This document shows, piece after piece, positions 1 through 10,033 of a stretch of DNA of 31,198 nt. The notes beneath the pieces are model-generated. The model searched no databases, was not told the origin of the DNA, and was given only the letters and a program-made list of their open reading frames with translations. Each line of letters opens with the position of its first letter. The first letter of the stretch is position 1. The stretch is from Inquilinus sp. Lineage in GTDB: Bacteria; Pseudomonadota; Alphaproteobacteria; DSM-16000; Inquilinaceae. The stretch is from contig JABDIP010000452.1 in assembly GCA_013003675.1 (NCBI GenBank), positions 1 to 31,198 on the forward strand, written 5' to 3'. The translations under genes and the position numbers were made by a program.

Positions 1-526
1 CGCCGGCGGCGGCGGTTCGCGCGGCCGGCGACGGCTCGCCGTCGTCGTGACGGGCCCGGCTCGGCGCCGTGGTCGGTGGCGCCTCGAGATAACGGCGGAT
101 GGCTTCGAGTGCCGCCGTGTCATCGGCTGCCCGCAGCAGCCAGCCATAGGCGCGGCCCAGAATACCCAGCGCATGGGCGGCGAGGTTGATACCGCACAGC
201 GAGTTGAGCCGCAGCCGGCCGCCGCTGCGCGACTCCGGGAACGCCCATAGGACGATCGGCGCGTCGACCGCCCGCGCGGCGGCCTCGGCCATGCCGGCAT
301 CCGTGAAGGTGACCTGCAGCACCAGCAACAGGTCGAGACGCTCGCCGGCGAGGACGGACAGGGCGCTCTCCGTCGCCGCGGGGTCGAACAGCAGATCCCG
401 CGCCCCGACGATCTCGGCATCGAGCCGGTCGAGGGTGGCGAAGGCGGCCTCGGCCGTCGCCTCGGCGAACGGCACGTCGAAGGTCGGTCGGGCGAGCGGC
501 AGGACGCCGATGCGCGGCCGGGCCAT
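1..526 (-). CDS. L-fucose/L-arabinose isomerase-family protein, N-terminal part (runs off the window edge); probable SqvD/SftI-type sulfoquinovose isomerase
   Basis: Not in the ORF track. Hand translation from ATG at 526, 3 nt after the aldolase stop, gives MARPRIGVLPLARPTFDVPFAE...LLLVLQVTFTDAG...PIVLWAFPESRSGGRLRLNSLCGINLAAHAL, open to position 1. The RPTFD and GGRLRLNSLxG segments match my recollection of this isomerase family; the neighbours are sulfoglycolysis genes. Confidence 0.7.
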   Translation of the reverse strand, partial: MARPRIGVLPLARPTFDVPFAEATAEAAFATLDRLDAEIVGARDLLFDPAATESALSVLAGERLDLLLVLQVTFTDAGMAEAAARAVDAPIVLWAFPESRSGGRLRLNSLCGINLAAHALGILGRAYGWLLRAADDTAALEAIRRYLEAPPTTAPSRARHDDGEPSPAARTAAAG

Positions 527-529
527 CGA

Positions 530-1570
530 TCAGCCGATCCCGCCATAGGTGGAGTTGAACCCGGGGCCGGCGTCGGCGAGTTCGACGCCGTCCGGGAAGC
601 AGGGGTGGTCGTGCCAGGGGGTCGCCGCCGCATAAGTCAGCGCATTCAACTCGCGCATATAGGGTACGGCGTTCTCCATCAGGGCGCGGTTCATCCGATC
701 CATGTCGGGGAAGTGCTGGCCCGCCTGCCACCAGATCGCGCGACCGGCGAGAAAACCGCTGGCGCCGGCACGGTAGGCGTATGTCAGGATGTGGCGGAAG
801 ACATCCTGGCCAGCGCCGGCCGACAGCATCACCCAGGGCCTTGGGCATGCCTTGCCGAGCGCGTCGAACCAGGCCTGAATCTCATCCGATCCCTCGGCCC
901 CAGGTTTGACCAGATTGTCGGCGGCGACCGGGCTTTCCAGCTTGTAGATATCGACGCCGTATTTCGGATCGGCGAAATCCTTCATGCTGTCGATCACCAG
1001 CTGCGGGCGCTTCGCCGCGTGCTCGATATAGTCCTGGGTCTGTCCCGACTCGCCGGGCAGCGGGTAGACCAGCAGTTCGAGCAGGAAGCAGATGTCATGG
1101 GCACGGCAGGCCTGGCCGACCGACTCCACGAAGCGTTGCTGGTGCTCGACGATCTCCGGTGCGGCGTCCGGACGGTACCACGCCAGAAGCTTCACACCGT
1201 CGGCGCCGAGCCGGCGGATCTTCTCGACGCTCCAATCGGCGATGGCGTGGGTGCGACGCCCGCCGGCGACCTCCTCGAATTGGGAGTCCTCCAGCGTGAG
1301 CAGCAATCCCTGGCTCGGCCGGACATGCCCCACCGCCGCCGGATAGGCGTAGTAGGGGTCGAGCAGCACGGCCGAACTCATCGGCGCCAGGGCGCCGACC
1401 AGCGCCGCCTTGAAGTCGCAGATTTCGGCGAAGTCGGCCTCGGCGACGCCGCGCTTCTCCTTGATCAGGTTGATGATCGGCGGGCGCTGGTCGACGGCGG
1501 TCATCTTGAACCGTCCGGTGTCGTCCGCCAGCCGACGAAAGCCCCACAGTTTACCTGCCGACATCGCCAT
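530..1570 (-). CDS. Class I tagatose-1,6-bisphosphate aldolase (LacD/YihT family); probable sulfofructose-1-phosphate aldolase
   Basis: Motifs AVDQR, SAVLLDP, GADGVKLL, YKLESP, PWVMLSAG and GASGFLAGRAIW. Start placed at 1570 (GGAGG upstream; TGATG overlap with the kinase stop) rather than 1645. Confidence 0.85.
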   Translation of the reverse strand: MAMSAGKLWGFRRLADDTGRFKMTAVDQRPPIINLIKEKRGVAEADFAEICDFKAALVGALAPMSSAVLLDPYYAYPAAVGHVRPSQGLLLTLEDSQFEEVAGGRRTHAIADWSVEKIRRLGADGVKLLAWYRPDAAPEIVEHQQRFVESVGQACRAHDICFLLELLVYPLPGESGQTQDYIEHAAKRPQLVIDSMKDFADPKYGVDIYKLESPVAADNLVKPGAEGSDEIQAWFDALGKACPRPWVMLSAGAGQDVFRHILTYAYRAGASGFLAGRAIWWQAGQHFPDMDRMNRALMENAVPYMRELNALTYAAATPWHDHPCFPDGVELADAGPGFNSTYGGIG

Positions 1571-2487
1571 CACGCAGCCTCCCGCAGCAAAGTGTCCACC
1601 TCGGCCCGGCTGGGGATTCCCGCGCGACCGCCGGGCCGGGTGCATTTCAGCGCCGCCGCCGCGCTGGCGAACCGCACCGCCGCCTCGATCGGCTGTCCCT
1701 CGGCCAGGGCGAGGGCAAGGGCGCCATGGAAGACGTCACCGGCACCGAGGGTGTCGCGGATTGCGACCGGGAAGGCCGGCAGGTGCGCAAGACGCTCGCC
1801 GTCCCGCCAATAGCAGCCATCGCCGCCGGCGGTCACCGCGACCCAGCCCTCGGTCATACGCGCGGCGCGCGCCAACCCTTCGGCCGGGTCGGCGCTGCCG
1901 GTCACCTGCTCCAGGCCGCCGCTCGAAAAGGCGGTGTGGCTGGCCAGGGGCAGCAGAGCGCGCGCCGCGTCGTCGGGCGTGGTGTCTGCGTCGAGGATCG
2001 CCGGCAGGCCGCGCTCCCGCGCCGCTTGCAGCACCGCGCGGGCGCCGTTCGGCCATCTTGCATCGACGAGCACCGCTTGCGCGGAATCCAGATCATGAAG
2101 TGGCAGGAAGCCGGTGTCCGGGTCGAGCGTCTTGTCGGCGAAGGCGATGATCATCCGCTCGCCCTTGGCGTCGACCATGACCGCCGATACCGACGAGCGG
2201 CCGTCCGGGATCCGCCGCGCCGCGGCGATGTCGACGCCCAATTCAGCCAGCTCGTCAAGGATTCGACAGCCCGTGGCGTCGCCGCCGACCCGGCCCCAGA
2301 ACCGGGCGCGTCCGCCCAGCCGGGCGACGGCAACTGCGGCGGTGGCCGCCGGCCCGCCGCCGACCTCGGTGAAACCATCGGCGAAATGCTTGCCGGCCCG
2401 CGCCGGCAGGGCGGCGGTGGCGAATATTTGGTCGAGCACGGCGATGCCGGCGCAGACGACCGCCGGGCCGGTGGCGCTCATCGCCAT
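1570..2487 (-). CDS. yihV: PfkB-family sugar kinase, sulfofructose kinase YihV-like
   Basis: EVGGGPAATAAVAVARLG, SAVMVDAKGERMII, DTLGAGDVFHGALA and AALKCTRPGGRAGIP closely follow E. coli YihV as I recall it. Confidence 0.85.
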   Translation of the reverse strand: MAMSATGPAVVCAGIAVLDQIFATAALPARAGKHFADGFTEVGGGPAATAAVAVARLGGRARFWGRVGGDATGCRILDELAELGVDIAAARRIPDGRSSVSAVMVDAKGERMIIAFADKTLDPDTGFLPLHDLDSAQAVLVDARWPNGARAVLQAARERGLPAILDADTTPDDAARALLPLASHTAFSSGGLEQVTGSADPAEGLARAARMTEGWVAVTAGGDGCYWRDGERLAHLPAFPVAIRDTLGAGDVFHGALALALAEGQPIEAAVRFASAAAALKCTRPGGRAGIPSRAEVDTLLREAA

Positions 2488-2580: not shown

Positions 2581-2623
2581 ACACTACCTAGCGGCCGGTT
2601 TGTCCGTCAACTCATCTATAAGA
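2581..2623 (-). promoter_or_regulatory. Putative sigma70 promoter (TTGACG-N18-TAGTGT) with adjacent operator-like TCTTATAGATGA, upstream of the kinase-aldolase-isomerase genes
   Basis: The -35 is at 2610-2605 and the -10 at 2586-2581. Positions 2612-2623 match the 3407-3418 palindrome at 10 of 12 positions. Confidence 0.5.
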
Positions 2624-2642: not shown

Positions 2643-3377
2643 CTAGGTCAGTTCACTCAGATAGGCCAGCTTGTCGGTCAGGCAGCGGCTGACGCGCCAT
2701 TCCACCGGGCGATGCTCGATGTCACGGGCGATGCGGTCGATCTCCAGCAACGGCGTGCCGGGCGCGACGGCAAGCTGGGCCGCTTCCTCCGGTTCAGCGG
2801 CCACGGCACGCAGCCGCTCGACGGCGTGCCCGACGGTGACACCGTACCGCCGCTGGTACAAGTCGTAGAGGGTGTTGGGCAGCGGCTCACCGCCCGGACT
2901 ATCGAGATCCGGGAACAGGGCCTGCGGGACAACGATACGCTCGACGATGATCGGATCGCCGTCGATCGACCGGCGGCGATCGATGCGCAAGACCACGGCG
3001 CCGGCCCGCAAACCCAGCGCCGCCGCCTCGGCCGCTCCGGCGATTCCCTTGCGGCAGTCCAACAGTTCGCTTTCCGGCAACTGCCGGTCGCCGTCCGCAT
3101 CGACCAGATGAAAGAAATGGAACAGCGCGGTGTCCGGCGAGTGGGCGGCAACGAAGGTGCCGCGTCCCTGCCGGCGCACGACGAGGTGCTGCGCCGCCAA
3201 ATCGTCCAGGGCCTTCCGCACCGTTCCCTGGCTGACGCCGAGTTCGGCGGCGAGGCGGCCCTCGCTGGGCAGCGCCTCGTCGGGTCGCCAGGTGCCGTCC
3301 GAGATGCGCCGCCGCAGCAGCTCGATCACCTGCTGGTAGAGCGGCCGATAGCCGGGCATCTGCTGTATCGGGTCCAT
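2643..3377 (-). CDS. GntR-family (HutC/UTRA) transcriptional regulator, SuyR-like position
   Basis: N-terminal wHTH (LPSEGRLAAELGVSQGTVRKAL...RRQGRGTFV) followed by a UTRA domain (NTLYDLY...ERLRAV); divergent from suyAB. Confidence 0.92.
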   Translation of the reverse strand: MDPIQQMPGYRPLYQQVIELLRRRISDGTWRPDEALPSEGRLAAELGVSQGTVRKALDDLAAQHLVVRRQGRGTFVAAHSPDTALFHFFHLVDADGDRQLPESELLDCRKGIAGAAEAAALGLRAGAVVLRIDRRRSIDGDPIIVERIVVPQALFPDLDSPGGEPLPNTLYDLYQRRYGVTVGHAVERLRAVAAEPEEAAQLAVAPGTPLLEIDRIARDIEHRPVEWRVSRCLTDKLAYLSELT

Positions 3378-3406: not shown

Positions 3407-3418
3407 TCTTATATAAGA
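3407..3418. promoter_or_regulatory. Perfect 12-bp palindrome TCTTATATAAGA, candidate operator of the GntR regulator
   Basis: Self-complementary AT-rich element in GC-rich DNA, between the divergent gntR and suyA genes. Confidence 0.6.
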
Positions 3419-3515: not shown

Positions 3516-3800
3516 ATGCAGCCGCATTTTCTGGTGCATGACAATGGCGACAATGTTGGCGTCGCGGTGGTCGAGGGGATCGCCGCCGGGGCCGAACTGT
3601 CGGGTTGGGTGATGGATACCGACGAGACGATCACCTTGAAGGCGAAGGACGCCATCCCGCTCGGTCACAAGATCGCGCTGAAGGCGCTCCCGGAGGGTGA
3701 GACGGTGGTCAAGTACGGTCACGACGTCGGCCGGGTCGTGGCCGGCGTCGAGCCGGGCGGACACGTCCATGTTCAGAACGTCAAGACGAAGCGCTGGTAA
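3516..3800 (+). CDS. suyA: (R)-sulfolactate sulfo-lyase small subunit (SAF domain, UxaA family)
   Basis: 94 aa with [21 protein letters not shown] and a C-terminal [10 protein letters not shown]; lies directly before the SuyB-like gene. Confidence 0.85.
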
Positions 3801-3814
3801 GGGGGACAACGGAC

Positions 3815-4984
3815 ATGGCCGCGGAACGGATCTTCATGGGCTATCGGCGCGAAAACGATCGCGTCGGCATCCGCAACCACGTCGTCGTCCTGCCGGTCGA
3901 CGATATCTCCAACGCCGCCTGCGAGGCGGTGGCGAACAATATCAAGGGCGTGCAGGCGCTGCCGCACTCCTATGGAAGGCTGCAGTTCGGCGCCGATCTG
4001 GAGCTGACTTTCAGGACGCTGATCGGGACCGGCTGCAATCCGAACGTCGCCGCCGTCATCGTCATCGGCATCGAGCCCGGCTGGACCAAGCGTATCGTCG
4101 ACGGCATCGCCGCCACCGGCAAACCGGTCGAAGGCTTCGCCATCGAGGAGCATGGCGACATCGATACCGTGGCCCGCGCCTCGCGCAAGGCCAAGGAATT
4201 CGTGCAATGGGCGACCGAGAAGCAGCGCGAGGAGGCGAGCCTCGACGAGTTGCACATCGCGACGAAATGCGGCGAATCCGACACCACGTCGGGCCTGGGT
4301 TCCTGTCCGACGGTGGGCAATCTGATCGACAAGGTCGACGTCGCCGGGGCAACGACCTGCTTCGGCGAGACGTCGGAATTGACCGGGGCGGAGATGATCT
4401 GCGCCGACCGGGCGGCAACGCCCGAGGCGCGCGAGAAGTTCGTGCGGACCTGGAATGCCTATAACGACTTCATCAACGAGAACAAGACCGACGACTTGTC
4501 GGAGAGCCAGCCGACCAAGGGCAACATCGCCGGCGGTCTGACCACGATCGAGGAAAAGGCGTTCGGCAACCTTCAGAAGATCGGCAAGGTCGCCCGCTAT
4601 ATCGATGTGTTGGAACCGGCGGAGACTCCGGCCAAGGGTGCCGGCCTCTATTTCATGGACACGTCGTCGGCGGCGGCTGAGTGCAACACGCTGCAGGCGG
4701 CGGCCGGGTTCGTCGTCCATCTGTTCCCGACCGGCCAGGGCAACATCATCGGCAACCCGATCATGCCGGTGATCAAGCTGACCGCCAATCCGAAGACGGC
4801 GCGCACGATGGCCGAGCATATCGACCTCGACGTGTCCGGGCTGCTGCGTCGGGAAATGAACCTGGATGAGGCCGGCGACCGGCTGATCGACATCACACTG
4901 CGGACCTGCAACGGCCGGATGACGGCGGCGGAGGCCCTGGGCCACCGCGAATTCGTCATCACCAAGCTGTACCGCAGCGCCTAG
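3815..4984 (+). CDS. suyB: (R)-sulfolactate sulfo-lyase large subunit (UxaA/GarD family)
   Basis: [62 protein letters not shown] and the C-terminal [14 protein letters not shown] are characteristic of SuyB as I recall it. Confidence 0.88.
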
Positions 4985-5013: not shown

Positions 5014-5042
5014 CTTTGCGCCGGCTTGCCGTCCGCTATACT
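5014..5042 (+). promoter_or_regulatory. Possible internal promoter for the TTT genes (-10 TATACT at 5037-5042)
   Basis: Strong -10 hexamer with a weak upstream CTTTGC, inside the 122-nt gap between suyB and tctC. Confidence 0.3.
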
Positions 5043-5106
5043 CGGTGGCGAAGAAAGAGCCGGGCCCCTGGAGGCCCAGCCTCAATCAAGATCGGGAGGT
5101 ATCGCC

Positions 5107-6063
5107 ATGAGAATTCTTCGGACGCTGTTGACCGCCGTCGCCGCTGTCGCGGTGATCGGAGCCCCCGTCGCCCAGGCCGAGTTTCCGGAAAAACCGATGA
5201 ATTTCATCGTCGCCTTCAACCCGGGCGGCGAGACCGACGTGACGGCGCGGCTGCAGCAACCCTACTACGAGAAAGTTGCCGGCCAGCCGCTGGTGATCCA
5301 GTACAAGCCCGGCGCCGGCGGTGCCCAGGCCTGGGCCGGTCTGAACGAGCTACCGGGCGACGGCTACACGATGGTCGGCACCAATCTGCCGCACATCATC
5401 CTGCAACCGATGGAGAAGGACGTCGGGTACGAGACCGCCGATATCACCAACGTCTACATGTTCCACTACACGCCGGATGCCGTGCTGGTGCCGCAGGACA
5501 GCCCGTTCCAGACACTGGCCGACCTAGTCGCCTACGCGAAGTCGACGCCCGGCGCGGTCACCTTGTCCGGCTCCGGCACCAATACGGCCAACCATCTGGC
5601 GCAGCGGCGGTTCAGCGAGATGGCCGGGATCACCACCACCTATGTGCCGTTCGGCGGCACCGGGCCGTCGGTGACCGCGGTGCTCGGCAACCAGGTGAGT
5701 GGCGCGATGGGCTATTCCACGGTCGGTGTCGCCCAGGAAGGCCAGCTTCGCATGCTGGCGGTCGCCACCGATCAGCGGCTGCCCCGCTTCCCCGACGTGC
5801 CGACCTTCAAGGAATTGGGCTACGACCTTGTTTCGGGCGCCTATCGCGGCATCGCGGTGCCGAAATCGACATCGGAGGAAGTTCGCCACCAGGTCTCCGA
5901 CATCATCGGCCGGATCAATGCCGATCCCGATTTCATCCAACAGATGGAGGATGGCGGCTTCGTCGTGATCGACGTGCCCTATGACGAGGTGCCGGCATTC
6001 ATGGCGGCGAAACAGAGCGAGTATGGCGAACTGGCCGACGCCATGGGCATCCGCAAGCGCTAG
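5107..6063 (+). CDS. tctC: Tripartite tricarboxylate transporter substrate-binding protein (Bug/TctC); probable sulfolactate binding
   Basis: Signal peptide, FNPGGETDVTAR, KPGAGGA and VPFGGTGPSVTAVLG. GGGAGG precedes the ATG at 5107, so this start is preferred over the TTG at 5026. Confidence 0.9.
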   Translation: MRILRTLLTAVAAVAVIGAPVAQAEFPEKPMNFIVAFNPGGETDVTARLQQPYYEKVAGQPLVIQYKPGAGGAQAWAGLNELPGDGYTMVGTNLPHIILQPMEKDVGYETADITNVYMFHYTPDAVLVPQDSPFQTLADLVAYAKSTPGAVTLSGSGTNTANHLAQRRFSEMAGITTTYVPFGGTGPSVTAVLGNQVSGAMGYSTVGVAQEGQLRMLAVATDQRLPRFPDVPTFKELGYDLVSGAYRGIAVPKSTSEEVRHQVSDIIGRINADPDFIQQMEDGGFVVIDVPYDEVPAFMAAKQSEYGELADAMGIRKR

Positions 6064-6099
6064 GCGGCCCTGGCCACCGCCGGCCCGGCCGCAACCGGC

Positions 6100-7602
6100 A
6101 TGCTGGACTTCCTCGCGCAGGCGCTGACGCCGTTCAACCTGACGCTGGCCTTGGTCGGTGTCGTGTTGGGGACGGTGATCGGCGCCCTGCCGGGGTTGTC
6201 GGCGACCATGGCGGTGGCGGTGCTGGTGCCGTTCACCTTCGCGATGGACCCGGCCTCGGGGCTGATCGCGCTCGGCGCCATCTATACCGGCGCCATCTAT
6301 GGCGGCGCCTTCGCCGCCATCCTGGTCAACACGCCGGGGACGCCGTCGGCAATCGCCACAACCTTCGACGGCTATCCGATGGCCCGGCGCGGCGATGGCA
6401 GTTTGGCAGTGACCCTGGCTACCCTGTCCTCGGTCACCGGCGGGCTGGTCGGCGCCGTCTTCCTGTTGCTGCTGGCGCCGCCGCTGGCCAAGGTGGCGCT
6501 GGCCTTCGGGCCGCCGGAGTATTTCTGGCTGGCGGTGTTCGGGCTGACGCTGATCTCCGCCCTGTCCACCGGCAATATGCTGAAGGGGCTGATCGGCGCC
6601 TGTTTCGGCCTGTTGTTGTCGATGGTCGGGGTGGCGGTGGTCGGCGGCGACATCCGCTTCACCCTCGAGAGCCAGACGCTGCTCGGCGGCATCAACGTGA
6701 TCGCGGCGCTGATCGGGCTCTATTGCATCCCGGTGCTGATCGATCTGGTCGCCACTCCCGATCCGCATCTGAAGGTCGCCGCGGGAGCCGGCGGTTTCCG
6801 CTTGGCCGAGGCGGCGCGGCTGGCGTGGCGCAGCAAGGTGAACCTGCTACGCAGTTCGGTCATTGGCACGCTGGTCGGCATCCTGCCCGGGGCCGGCGGT
6901 TCGATCGCCGCGCTGGTCTCTTATTCCGAGGCGCGGCGTTCGTCAAAGCGGCCGGAGCGGTTCGGCCAGGGCGAGCCGGACGGCATCATGGCCACTGAAA
7001 GCGCCAACAACGCCACGGTCGGCGGCGGCTTCATCCCGACCCTGGTGCTCGGCATCCCCGGCACACCGCCCGACGCGGTGATCCTCGGGGCCTTGCTGGT
7101 GCAGGGTATCCGCACCGGCCCGACCCTGTTCGTGCAACAGGGATCGATCGTCTACACCTTCATCTTCGGGCTGCTGATCGCCACCGTGCTGATGCTGCCG
7201 ACCGGCCTGGTGCTCGGCCGCTACGCCTATCAGTCGATCGTCTCGATCCCCAAGGCGGTGCTGGTGCCGACGGTGGCGTTCATGACCGTCATCGGCTCCT
7301 ACGCCATCCAGAACAGCCCCTCCGACGTGGTCATCATGTGGGCGCTGGGCGTGATGGGCTGGGGGTTGAACCGCTTCGGCTTCTCGCCGTCGCCGATCGT
7401 GCTCGGCCTCATCCTCGGGCAGATCGCCGAGCAGGGGTTCGTGCAGGCTTATCTGATCGGCAACGCGACGGGCAACGTGGCGGGCATGTATTTCGGCCGG
7501 CCGATCAGCCTGGCGATCCTGGCCCTGGCCCTGCTGACGCTGTTCTATCCCTGGCTTTCGGATCGCTGGCGCAGGCGCCGGCGGGGGACTCCGGATGACT
7601 GA
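6100..7602 (+). CDS. tctA: Tripartite tricarboxylate transporter large permease
   Basis: Hydrophobic 500 aa with GALPGLSATM, NTPGTPSAIATTFDGYPM and LGIPGTPPDAVILGAL. Confidence 0.92.
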   Translation: MLDFLAQALTPFNLTLALVGVVLGTVIGALPGLSATMAVAVLVPFTFAMDPASGLIALGAIYTGAIYGGAFAAILVNTPGTPSAIATTFDGYPMARRGDGSLAVTLATLSSVTGGLVGAVFLLLLAPPLAKVALAFGPPEYFWLAVFGLTLISALSTGNMLKGLIGACFGLLLSMVGVAVVGGDIRFTLESQTLLGGINVIAALIGLYCIPVLIDLVATPDPHLKVAAGAGGFRLAEAARLAWRSKVNLLRSSVIGTLVGILPGAGGSIAALVSYSEARRSSKRPERFGQGEPDGIMATESANNATVGGGFIPTLVLGIPGTPPDAVILGALLVQGIRTGPTLFVQQGSIVYTFIFGLLIATVLMLPTGLVLGRYAYQSIVSIPKAVLVPTVAFMTVIGSYAIQNSPSDVVIMWALGVMGWGLNRFGFSPSPIVLGLILGQIAEQGFVQAYLIGNATGNVAGMYFGRPISLAILALALLTLFYPWLSDRWRRRRRGTPDD

Positions 7603-8083
7603 CGGCATCGAGGGCGGCGGCCCGAAATACCGCGACTACCCGTCGATCGGCCTTGCCGTTCTGTTCGCTCTGCTCGGTGTCTGGGTGCTGTTCGAGACAA
7701 CGGCGATGACGGCGTTCGGCTCGATCTTCCCGCGCGCCATCGCGATCGCCATGATCGTCCTGTCGATGGCGCTGGTGGTCCAGCAGCTCCGGCGCCCGAG
7801 GCGGCCGGGCCCGGGCCGGCCGTCGTCAGGGCCTGAGTCGACGCCGCGGCGGGTGGCATTGGCGGCAGTCATGGCGGCCTGGGCATTGTCGATGCCGGTG
7901 GTCGGCTTTTTCGTGACCAGCCTGCTGGCGTTCCTGGTGCTCTTGGCGGTCGCCAATTATGACGGCTGGACGCCGCGCCGTATGCTCCTCTATGGCGCAT
8001 CCGGGGTCGTGGTAGTCGCTGGCTTCTATCTGCTGTTCGTCAAGGCGCTGCTGGTGCCGGTTCCGAGCGGTTGGCTGTTCTGA
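7595..8083 (+). CDS. tctB: Tripartite tricarboxylate transporter small permease
   Basis: 162 aa with about four hydrophobic segments, FPRAI, and C-terminal LLVPVPSG; overlaps the tctA stop. Confidence 0.85.
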   Translation: MTDGIEGGGPKYRDYPSIGLAVLFALLGVWVLFETTAMTAFGSIFPRAIAIAMIVLSMALVVQQLRRPRRPGPGRPSSGPESTPRRVALAAVMAAWALSMPVVGFFVTSLLAFLVLLAVANYDGWTPRRMLLYGASGVVVVAGFYLLFVKALLVPVPSGWLF

Positions 8084-8096
8084 GGAATTTCCCGGC

Positions 8097-9029
8097 GTGA
8101 CCGACATCTTGATCTCCGAGTTCATGGACGCGGCGGCTATCGACGGGCTGTCCGCCGACTTCGCCGTCCGCTACGACCGTACGCTGGTCGACCGGCCGGA
8201 CGAGCTTCGGGCGGCGGTGGCCGGCGTGCGGGCGCTGATCGTCCGCAACCGCACCCAGGTGCGCGGGGCGCTGCTGGGGGCGGCCGGATCGCTGGAGGCG
8301 GTCGGTCGGCTCGGCGTCGGACTCGACAACATCGATGTCGACGCCTGCAAGGCGCGAGGGATTGCCGTGCTGCCGGCAACCGGCGCCAACGACGTCAGCG
8401 TTGCCGAATACGTCGTCGGCGGCTTGCTGATGCTGCTGCGCGGCGCCTATTTCGCCAGCGCTGCCGTGGCCGCCGGCGACTGGCCGCGCGAGCGGCTGAT
8501 CGGACGCGAGGCCGCCGGGATGACGCTCGGCCTGGTCGGCTTTGGCGGGATTGCCCGCGCCGTCGCGCGCCGGGCGGCGGCACTGGAGATGCGGCTGGTC
8601 GGCCACGACCCGTACCTCGCCGACGACGATCCGGCCTGGGCCGGGCATGGGACGACGCCGGTGCCGTTCGACCGGCTGCTCGCCGGGGCCGACGTGGTCA
8701 GCCTGCACGTGCCGCTGACCGACGCCACCCGCCATCTGATCGGCGCCGCGGCGCTGGCCGCGATGCGTGACGGCGCGGTGCTGATCAACGCCGCGCGCGG
8801 TGGCGTCGTCGATGAGGCGGCGCTGGCGGACGCCCTGCGCGGCGGGACGCTGGGGGGTGCGATGCTGGATGTCTTCGAGCGGGAACCGCTGCCGGCCGGC
8901 GCCGGGTTCGAGGATCTGCCGAATCTGATCCTGACCCCGCACATCGCCGGGGTGACGCAGCAATCGAATGTGCGGGTCAGCGCGGTGGTCGCCGACAAGG
9001 TGCGCCGGATTTTGGGGGTGCGGCAATGA
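8097..9029 (+). CDS. slcC: D-isomer 2-hydroxyacid dehydrogenase, (S)-sulfolactate dehydrogenase SlcC-like
   Basis: GRLGVGLDNID, GLVGFGGIA, SLHVPLT, INAARG and TPHIAG; N-terminus ILISEFMD; sulfolactate gene context. Confidence 0.8.
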   Translation: MTDILISEFMDAAAIDGLSADFAVRYDRTLVDRPDELRAAVAGVRALIVRNRTQVRGALLGAAGSLEAVGRLGVGLDNIDVDACKARGIAVLPATGANDVSVAEYVVGGLLMLLRGAYFASAAVAAGDWPRERLIGREAAGMTLGLVGFGGIARAVARRAAALEMRLVGHDPYLADDDPAWAGHGTTPVPFDRLLAGADVVSLHVPLTDATRHLIGAAALAAMRDGAVLINAARGGVVDEAALADALRGGTLGGAMLDVFEREPLPAGAGFEDLPNLILTPHIAGVTQQSNVRVSAVVADKVRRILGVRQ

Positions 9030-10033
9030 GTAGCAAGCGTCTTTCTCTCGCCGAGGCCCGCGACTTGGCGGCCCTGGTCCTGCGCAGGGCGAACACCGAA
9101 TCTGCGAATGCGGCGGTGGTCGCCGAGGCGCTGGTGCTGGCCGAGGCCGATTTGCTCTCCTCGCACGGGCTCGCCCGGCTGCCGGCCTATGCCGATCAGG
9201 CCGCCGCCGGCAAGGTCGATGGCCATGCGGTACCCACCCTCCGACAGACCAGGCCGGCGGCATTGCTGGTCGATGCCGGGACCGGGTTCGCCTTTCCCGC
9301 CATCGACAAGGGACTGCCGGCACTGCAGGCCCTGGCCGGTGAGACCGGGATTGCCGCGCTGGCGATCGGCAATTCGCACCATTTCGGCGTCGCCGGCCAC
9401 CCCGTCGAGGCGCTGGCGCGGGCCGGCATGCTCGGCATTGCCATGGGCAACGCGCCGGCAGCGATCGCCCCCTGGGGCGGCCACAAGCCCTTGTTCGGCA
9501 CCAATCCGATCGCCTTTGCCTGTCCGCGCGAGGGCCATGACCCGATCGTCGTCGATCTGAGCCTGAGCCGCGTCGCCCGCGGCAAGGTGATGCTCGCCGC
9601 CCAGCGCGGCCAGCCGATCCCCGACAATTGGGCGCTCGACGCCGACGGCAGCCCGACCACCGATGCGAAGGCGGCGCTGGAAGGCAGCATGCTGCCGTTG
9701 GGCGATGCCAAGGGCGCGGCGCTGGTCCTGATGGTGGAGATCCTGGCGACCTGCCTCACCGGGTCGAATTTCGGCTACGAGGCTTCGACCTTCTTCAATG
9801 CCAAGGGCGGACCGCCCCGGGTCGGCCAGTTCTTCCTGGCGATCGCGCCGGAGGCCATGGGAGGAGACAATTTCGCCACCCGCGTCGAGACGCTGATCTC
9901 GGCGATTCTTGACCAGCCGGGGACCCGGCTGCCCGGCATCCGGCGCTTCGAGGCCAGGGCGCAGTCGGAACGCGACGGGATCGTGCTGCCCGAAGCGCTT
10001 TACGCCGATATCGCGGCGCGTGCCGCCGGGTAG
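9026..10033 (+). CDS. comC: Ldh_2/ComC-family dehydrogenase, (R)-sulfolactate dehydrogenase-like
   Basis: SHGLARL, NSHHFG, FGTNPIAFA and GDAKGAAL; ATGA overlap with slcC. Confidence 0.8.
   Translation: MSSKRLSLAEARDLAALVLRRANTESANAAVVAEALVLAEADLLSSHGLARLPAYADQAAAGKVDGHAVPTLRQTRPAALLVDAGTGFAFPAIDKGLPALQALAGETGIAALAIGNSHHFGVAGHPVEALARAGMLGIAMGNAPAAIAPWGGHKPLFGTNPIAFACPREGHDPIVVDLSLSRVARGKVMLAAQRGQPIPDNWALDADGSPTTDAKAALEGSMLPLGDAKGAALVLMVEILATCLTGSNFGYEASTFFNAKGGPPRVGQFFLAIAPEAMGGDNFATRVETLISAILDQPGTRLPGIRRFEARAQSERDGIVLPEALYADIAARAAG

Follow-up and report, generated by a model that had tools for sequence, protein, structure and literature searches.

We propose that the open reading frame cut off by the end of an Inquilinaceae contig encodes a SqvD/SftI-type sulfoquinovose (SQ) isomerase, and we consider it likely from the encoded proteins and their neighbors that this enzyme serves a hybrid sulfo-EMP locus extended by SuyAB. 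The window analyzed here (31,198 nucleotides in full length) comprises bases 1-31198 of contig C457 from a 90%-complete metagenome-assembled genome of 583 contigs. What we observed directly, and what this reading builds on, are protein homologies, residue conservation, gene order and the occurrence of the same arrangement in other genomes.

According to the proposed pathway, SQ glycosides would enter via a TRAP transporter and be cleaved by SqgA, a GH188 NAD-dependent sulfoquinovosidase. A metal-dependent aldose-ketose isomerase, predicted to be encoded at the end of a translationally coupled kinase-aldolase-isomerase operon, would convert SQ to 6-deoxy-6-sulfofructose and most likely replaces the YihS-type enzyme of E. 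coli. The YihV-like kinase would then form sulfofructose-1-phosphate, which the LacD-like class I aldolase would split into DHAP and sulfolactaldehyde. Oxidation of sulfolactaldehyde to (S)-sulfolactate would be left to an aldehyde dehydrogenase whose gene lies outside the locus, SlcC and ComC would racemize sulfolactate through sulfopyruvate, and SuyAB would release pyruvate and sulfite. Recovery of a gene hidden by an assembly break would complete, in one locus of an uncultured Inquilinaceae bacterium, a route that leads from SQ glycosides to DHAP, pyruvate and sulfite, in contrast to the usual two-organism picture in which the products of sulfoglycolysis are exported to secondary degraders.

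Organization of the locus

The locus joined from contigs C283 and C457 carries the GH188 enzyme SqgA, the TRAP transporter and a MauG-like gene, and on the opposite strand the isomerase, aldolase, kinase and GntR genes; past gntR it continues with suyAB, a TTT transporter, slcC and comC (Table 1).

Table 1. Positions of the features assigned to the locus within the window
Feature	Position	Strand	Remarks
SqvD/SftI-like sulfoquinovose isomerase, putative, 5′ fragment	2..526	-	175 codons; remainder at G000:C283:7471-8013 (-)
LacD-like class I aldolase, candidate sulfofructose-1-phosphate aldolase	530..1570	-	Pfam DeoC/LacD; NCBIfam PRK12858, 356 bits
YihV-like PfkB sulfofructose kinase, predicted	1570..2487	-	PDB 7AG6, E 1.4e-79; 48% identical to E. 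coli YihV
Palindrome TCTTATATAAGA, 10/12 copy, candidate operator	2612..2623		Upstream of kinase
GntR/UTRA-family regulator	2643..3377	-	Between the two arms
Palindrome TCTTATATAAGA, perfect, candidate operator	3407..3418		Between gntR and suyA
SuyA-like small subunit, (R)-sulfolactate sulfo-lyase	3516..3800	+	Weak match to galactarate dehydratase N-terminus
SuyB-like large subunit, (R)-sulfolactate sulfo-lyase	3815..4984	+	Pfam GD_AH_C, GD_AH_second
Tripartite tricarboxylate-type (TTT) transporter, SlcHFG-like	5026..8083	+	tctC 5026-6063, tctA 6100-7602, tctB 7595-8083
SlcC-like D-2-hydroxyacid dehydrogenase	8097..9029	+	Found in 31/79 loci
ComC-like Ldh_2-family dehydrogenase	9026..10033	+	Found in 17/79 loci, nearly all with SuyB

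An isomerase gene split over two contigs

At the very start of the window, an open frame runs on the minus strand from an ATG at 526-524 down to base 2 without a stop. Three nucleotides (527-529) separate this ATG from the TGA of the aldolase gene (532-530), and the translation contains GGRLRLNSLCG; coordinates and translation thus confirm the first-pass annotation, which had pointed out an ORF with this spacing and motif. The frame looks coding, with a GC3 of 0.89 against a window GC of 67.6%, and the fragment is 66-68% identical over 173 residues to full-length genes (467 aa) in four same-genus genomes. Since the window starts where contig C457 starts, the gene is cut by the assembly and not by mutation.

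A search of the same assembly with the homologue of the same-genus genome G004 found a C-terminal piece of 181 codons, 81% identical to residues 287-467 of that homologue, at the end of contig C283. With both pieces on the minus strand, an order of C283, gap and C457 is consistent. The full gene, whose recovery had been suggested together with the ORF, was in this way regained except for approximately 113 codons (about a quarter of the gene), which are unassembled in a gap of approximately 340 bp between the two contigs. The contig end truncates a sulfosugar isomerase gene, and the ORF is the genuine 5′ third of it.

Family assignment of the isomerase

The assignment of the fragment to the SqvD/SftI type within the FucI/AraA superfamily is supported by profile, fold and residue comparisons. 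A Pfam search with the 175-aa N-terminal fragment alone gave no match; hence, the family is visible only via NCBIfam and the full-length relatives. The sole NCBIfam match of the isomerase is the SftI SQ isomerase model (NF048012), at scores below that model's cut-off. The fragments cover model positions 6-146 (67.7 bits) and 263-439 (133.9 bits) and the full-length same-genus homologue matches end to end with 287 bits, while the NCBI equivalog cut-off is 700 bits, a value that none of ten more distant representatives reaches either (214-482 bits). By NCBI's rule, the isomerase is therefore a relative and not an equivalog. Neither the fragments nor the full-length homologue matched the NCBIfam models for FucI or AraA, and the C283 fragment passes the cut-off of Pfam Fucose_iso_C (PF02952; 32.5 versus 29.3 bits).

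A PDB sequence search with the full-length homologue matched no chain, which made a fold search necessary. Using the AF2 model of this homologue (pLDDT 97.4), Foldseek retrieved L-arabinose isomerases (AraA; E 8e-23, TM ~0.57) and L-fucose isomerases (FucI; E 3e-17), with 12-14% identity to the solved FucI and AraA; no SqvD structure was among the PDB entries searched. Alignment of a 71-member family profile with E. coli AraA by hhalign (96.4% probability) pairs E307, H346 and H440 of the isomerase with E306, H350 and H450 of AraA, residues with established metal-binding or catalytic roles. E307, D309, D331, H346 and H440 are near-invariant (kept in 68-71 of the 71 representatives) and all five are present on the C283 fragment. 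In the N-terminal domain, motif positions L105, N108 and S109 are kept in 66-70 of the same 71 representatives, which range from 28 to 86% identity, R104 in 57 and R106 in 49. Judged by this alignment, GGRLRLNS(L/F)CG is a signature of the N-terminal domain of the family; neither E. coli FucI nor AraA contains it.

With E. coli AraA and FucI the isomerase thus has the fold and the aligned metal and catalytic residues in common, whereas the identity is low, a match to either family model is lacking and the gene context is entirely different. The likeness to the SqvD/SftI SQ isomerases comprises the superfamily, the length class, the end-to-end model match, the E/D/H/H metal-site residues and presumably also the reaction from SQ to sulfofructose. 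The differences are an identity of approximately 30-35%, the score of 287 versus 700 bits and the placement in a distinct proteobacterial/actinobacterial clade. We found no published assays for any member of its proteobacterial clade. The partners are different as well: here, the isomerase goes with a PfkB kinase and a class I aldolase, while the known SqvD/SftI isomerases are associated with a transaldolase, a transketolase or PfkA and a class II aldolase instead. SqvB (DUF4867) was not seen in the locus. There is no similarity of the isomerase to YihS (PF07221), and the lone YihS-like match in the genome (24% identical) lies on the unrelated contig C110.

The isomerase tree has 99 rows, was built without an experimentally characterized Firmicute SqvD/SftI and includes the window protein as its N- and C-terminal fragments with X over the gap. 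The window isomerase groups with Inquilinaceae relatives inside a well-supported clade of 44 rows, hereafter the starred clade, together with members from Yersiniaceae, Zymomonas, Pseudovibrio, Cohaesibacter, Roseobacteraceae (including Jannaschia faecimaris), Hyphomicrobiales, SAR324 and Chloroflexota. Both E. coli FucI and AraA fall outside the starred clade on branches of 2.9 and 3.7 substitutions per site, respectively, so that the grouping with bona fide L-fucose or L-arabinose isomerases, named beforehand as the outcome that would contradict the assignment, is not observed. The node that places FucI inside the tree is unsupported, and we treat this position as long-branch noise and not as a relationship.

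Two further observations were made on the wider superfamily. A distant subfamily represented on a Rahnella plasmid (L108) and in Listeria (L109) has approximately 26% identity, does not have the motif and adjoins a split transketolase and an FGGY kinase. In Yersinia aldovae ATCC 35236 (L101), the isomerase match has stops in one frame, due to either a frameshift or a draft-assembly error, and was left out for that reason.

Kinase and aldolase

The kinase keeps K27, R138, D162 and the catalytic D244 of YihV, and the position of N109 is occupied by Ala in both the window gene and the same-genus homologue. The sulfonate triad of YihV consists of K27-N109-R138 (PMC8006165).

The aldolase is by homology a class I enzyme of the DeoC/LacD family with the Schiff-base lysine kept. 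Its best PDB match is 8TNF (E 3e-92; 44% identity in the fold alignment), followed by LacD (~1e-41) and YihT (8e-23). With YihT it is 29% identical; the Schiff-base K193 and R253 are aligned and S227 of YihT is Ala. The entry title of 8TNF names a sulfohexulose-1-phosphate aldolase of Paracoccus onubensis strain Merri. As the nearest solved relative thus bears the name “sulfohexulose,” homology does not fix the configuration of the sugar. The open frame of the aldolase extends up to 1645; in this long version, the first 23 residues are modelled as disordered, with a pLDDT below 50, and the stop codon of the kinase gene overlaps an ATG at 1570-1568 (ATGA). The true start is probably this ATG, in which case kinase, aldolase and isomerase are translationally coupled. 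The first-pass annotation had described a SqvD-type isomerase, a YihV kinase and a class I aldolase as a mix-and-match variant, a description that holds, with the correction that the aldolase is closer to LacD than to YihT.

Compared with the yih system of E. coli (YihS, YihV, YihT), the inferred intermediates are the same and the kinases are homologous. The isomerases, in contrast, are non-homologous (FucI/AraA fold versus YihS family PF07221) and the aldolase is LacD-like and 29% identical to YihT. In addition, sulfolactaldehyde would be turned into sulfolactate and passed to SuyAB here, whereas in E. coli it is converted to DHPS through YihU.

Recurrence of the locus and relation to published hybrid clusters

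A scan of one genome per species yielded 79 loci with an isomerase homologue (L023-L101), including 47 full loci with at least 8 kb on both sides of the isomerase. YihV-like kinases are found in 41 of the 47 full loci and SFP-type aldolases in 39; the latter are represented by the window-type LacD-like class I aldolase (32/47, always directly adjacent and on the same strand) or the SqiA-type class II aldolase (7/47). A sulfoquinovosidase is present in 37 full loci, as SqgA in 32 and as YihQ in five. SuyB occurs in 15 full loci and a sulfolactaldehyde (SLA)-dehydrogenase-like ALDH in 17. YihS was found in none of the 47 full loci and in none of the 79 loci overall. Starred-clade isomerases with 47-58% identity are located in Yersiniaceae and Pseudovibrio loci beside YihQ, YihU and YihV. 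These neighbors are 51-78% identical to their E. coli counterparts, and the isomerase clearly stands in for YihS there. More distant relatives on Zymomonas pZZM402 (42% identity), a Chlorohelix plasmid (35%) and a Deinococcus plasmid (28%) adjoin aldolases, kinases, sulfoquinovosidase candidates and SLA-dehydrogenase-like genes. Genes of this clade, currently labelled “L-fucose/L-arabinose isomerase family,” are good markers of SQ catabolism and deserve a better annotation.

Hybrid sulfo-EMP1/2 clusters are defined by a PF00294 kinase and a PF01791 aldolase of EMP1 mixed with a PF02952 isomerase of EMP2 (Sharma 2023, PMC10665668), and the module on the window and C283 fits this combination. 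Replacement of YihS by a SqvD-type isomerase and swapping of class I and class II aldolases have been described in such clusters (PMC9594981, PMC10665668), and experimental work exists for a Vibrio hybrid (PMC13372026). GH188 SqgA has been found within them, e.g., in Jannaschia faecimaris (PMC10755693), and “extended” sulfoglycolysis with SuyAB has been reported (PMC9594981). The actinobacterial cluster IMCC26103 combines GH188, a fucose isomerase, a sulfofructose kinase, an SFP aldolase, SuyAB and a PGDH-like dehydrogenase (PMC11465081). The idea of a hybrid module put forward in the first-pass annotation is thus correct and backed by the Pfam combination and the homologies, but the novelty it implied fails: hybrids have been published (PMC9594981, PMC10665668, PMC11465081, PMC10755693), the arrangement is common, and the cluster type is widespread and not a new kind of pathway. 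Nor are SqvD-type isomerases confined to Firmicutes.

The window locus shares its isomerase clade with Yersiniaceae (SqvD and SqiA) and Jannaschia at 47-50% identity, and it agrees with published hybrids in the Pfam combination and in having GH188 in place of GH31. With the actinobacterial IMCC26103 cluster it shares SuyAB and a PGDH-like dehydrogenase in one locus. It differs from published hybrids by its host (an Inquilinaceae MAG), by the TRAP and TTT transporters and by the MauG-like gene, and from the actinobacterial cluster by having no SLA dehydrogenase gene, one being reported for the latter.

Alternative readings of the isomerase

A gene truly truncated or disrupted in the organism, i.e., a pseudogene, would also account for an isomerase that is present in the assembly only as two pieces with approximately 113 codons absent. 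Both pieces, however, stop exactly at contig ends, are consistently oriented, are free of internal stops and retain the conserved residues; moreover, the neighbors on C283 follow the gene order of a complete same-genus genome, and the MAG is fragmented into 583 contigs. We consequently regard a pseudogene as very improbable. An equally slim chance is given to an ordinary sugar isomerase of an L-fucose, L-arabinose, D-galactose or tagatose route that came to lie beside sulfonate genes by accident, even though the public annotation reads L-fucose/L-arabinose isomerase family and the NCBIfam name of the aldolase is tagatose 1,6-diphosphate aldolase. Against it stand the absence of an NCBIfam FucI or AraA match, the 12-14% identity to the solved enzymes, and the very long branches on which FucI and AraA lie outside the starred clade. 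There are also no fucK/fucA or araB/araD neighbors, and the association with sulfoquinovosidase, SuyAB and SLA-dehydrogenase-like genes recurs across phyla.

A somewhat stronger, though still unlikely, competitor is that the three enzymes (isomerase, kinase and LacD-like aldolase) use a different sulfohexose as substrate, for example sulfofucose via sulfotagatose and its 1-phosphate, or several sulfohexoses. It draws on the origin of the closest solved aldolase, 8TNF, a sulfohexulose-1-phosphate aldolase from the sulfofucose-degrading Paracoccus strain Merri, and on the isomerase fold being nearest to AraA. AraA also isomerizes D-galactose, and LacD aldolases discriminate poorly at C3/C4, which both count in its favor. 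An EMP-like sulfofucolytic route with PF00294 and PF01791 genes has been proposed as well, but it was not found: sulfofucose did not induce the kinase and aldolase of strain Merri, and sulfotagatose was not detected (PMC12421959). Furthermore, the GH188 enzyme of the locus has the catalytic and sulfonate residues of solved sulfoquinovosidases, and in SQ loci that otherwise resemble the one of E. coli, YihS is replaced by an isomerase of the same clade.

Sulfolactate arm, transporters and the missing dehydrogenase

The SuyA-like ORF corresponds in size and position to the small UxaA-family ORF past hpsNOP in Cupriavidus pinatubonensis. In the same species, the product of the gene that follows hpsN-hpsO shares 66% identity with SuyB, and the identity to Paracoccus genes is approximately 70%. 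The tctCAB genes are inserted between suyB and slcC only in the window genome; they are absent from G004, suyAB-slcC-comC are contiguous in the same-genus genomes, and TctA is present in just three of the 79 loci. The TTT transporter may add uptake of external sulfolactate.

On C283, the plus strand encodes a Gfo/Idh/MocA oxidoreductase, the TRAP components dctQ, dctM and dctP and a MauG-like di-haem protein, in the gene order of a complete same-genus genome. The oxidoreductase matches the NAD-dependent sulfoquinovosidases SqgA (8QC3, 8QC2 and 8ZN9; E 1e-113 to 1e-119) and keeps the sulfonate triad R166/L170/K172. YihQ, a mutarotase and a class II aldolase were not found in the 90%-complete genome with the queries used, which does not prove their absence.

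The joined locus contains neither an ALDH-type SLA dehydrogenase gene nor a mutarotase gene. The versions of the locus that bear SuyAB (15) and those that bear an SLA-dehydrogenase-like ALDH (17) overlap in one of the 47 full loci, a figure that is not a statistical test because the genomes compared are mutually related. The most promising ALDH of the genome (C258:217-1641) shares 57-67% identity with cluster-linked genes of other genomes, but in complete same-genus genomes its orthologue and the cluster are approximately 180-220 kb apart, and linkage thus gives no support. Clustering of all ORFs of the 79 loci revealed no replacement SLA dehydrogenase family specific to SuyAB loci; the families specific to these loci were SuyA/B, ComC, GntR, a solute-binding protein and antisense shadow ORFs without a Pfam match. 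In this lineage, a hybrid sulfo-EMP arm and a SuyAB-SlcC-ComC arm may share one GntR regulator and, given the single overlap, an unrecognized enzyme may oxidize sulfolactaldehyde; alternatively, the trio of isomerase, kinase and LacD-like aldolase may act on several sulfohexoses. We hold this reading to be rather unlikely. Oxidation of sulfolactaldehyde is likewise reported as a “missing step” in the study of Paracoccus strain Merri (PMC12421959), and our survey of loci provides a comparative pointer to this unsolved reaction.

Regulator and accompanying genes

A homologue of the GntR regulator is present in 21 of the 79 loci, mostly in those with SuyAB. The palindrome TCTTATATAAGA has two matches in the window, where 0.03 are expected, one before each of the divergent arms, and the pair is a candidate operator of the GntR/UTRA regulator.

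The MauG/cytochrome-c-peroxidase-like di-haem protein (656 aa; G000:C283:5445-7415 (+), L019) is encoded between the TRAP genes and the isomerase, on which its gene converges. We found no role for such a protein in published SQ pathways. Homologues with 47-80% identity are present in 21 of the 79 isomerase loci, 18 of which also have the TRAP component DctM, including those of Inquilinaceae, Jannaschia and Litoreibacter.
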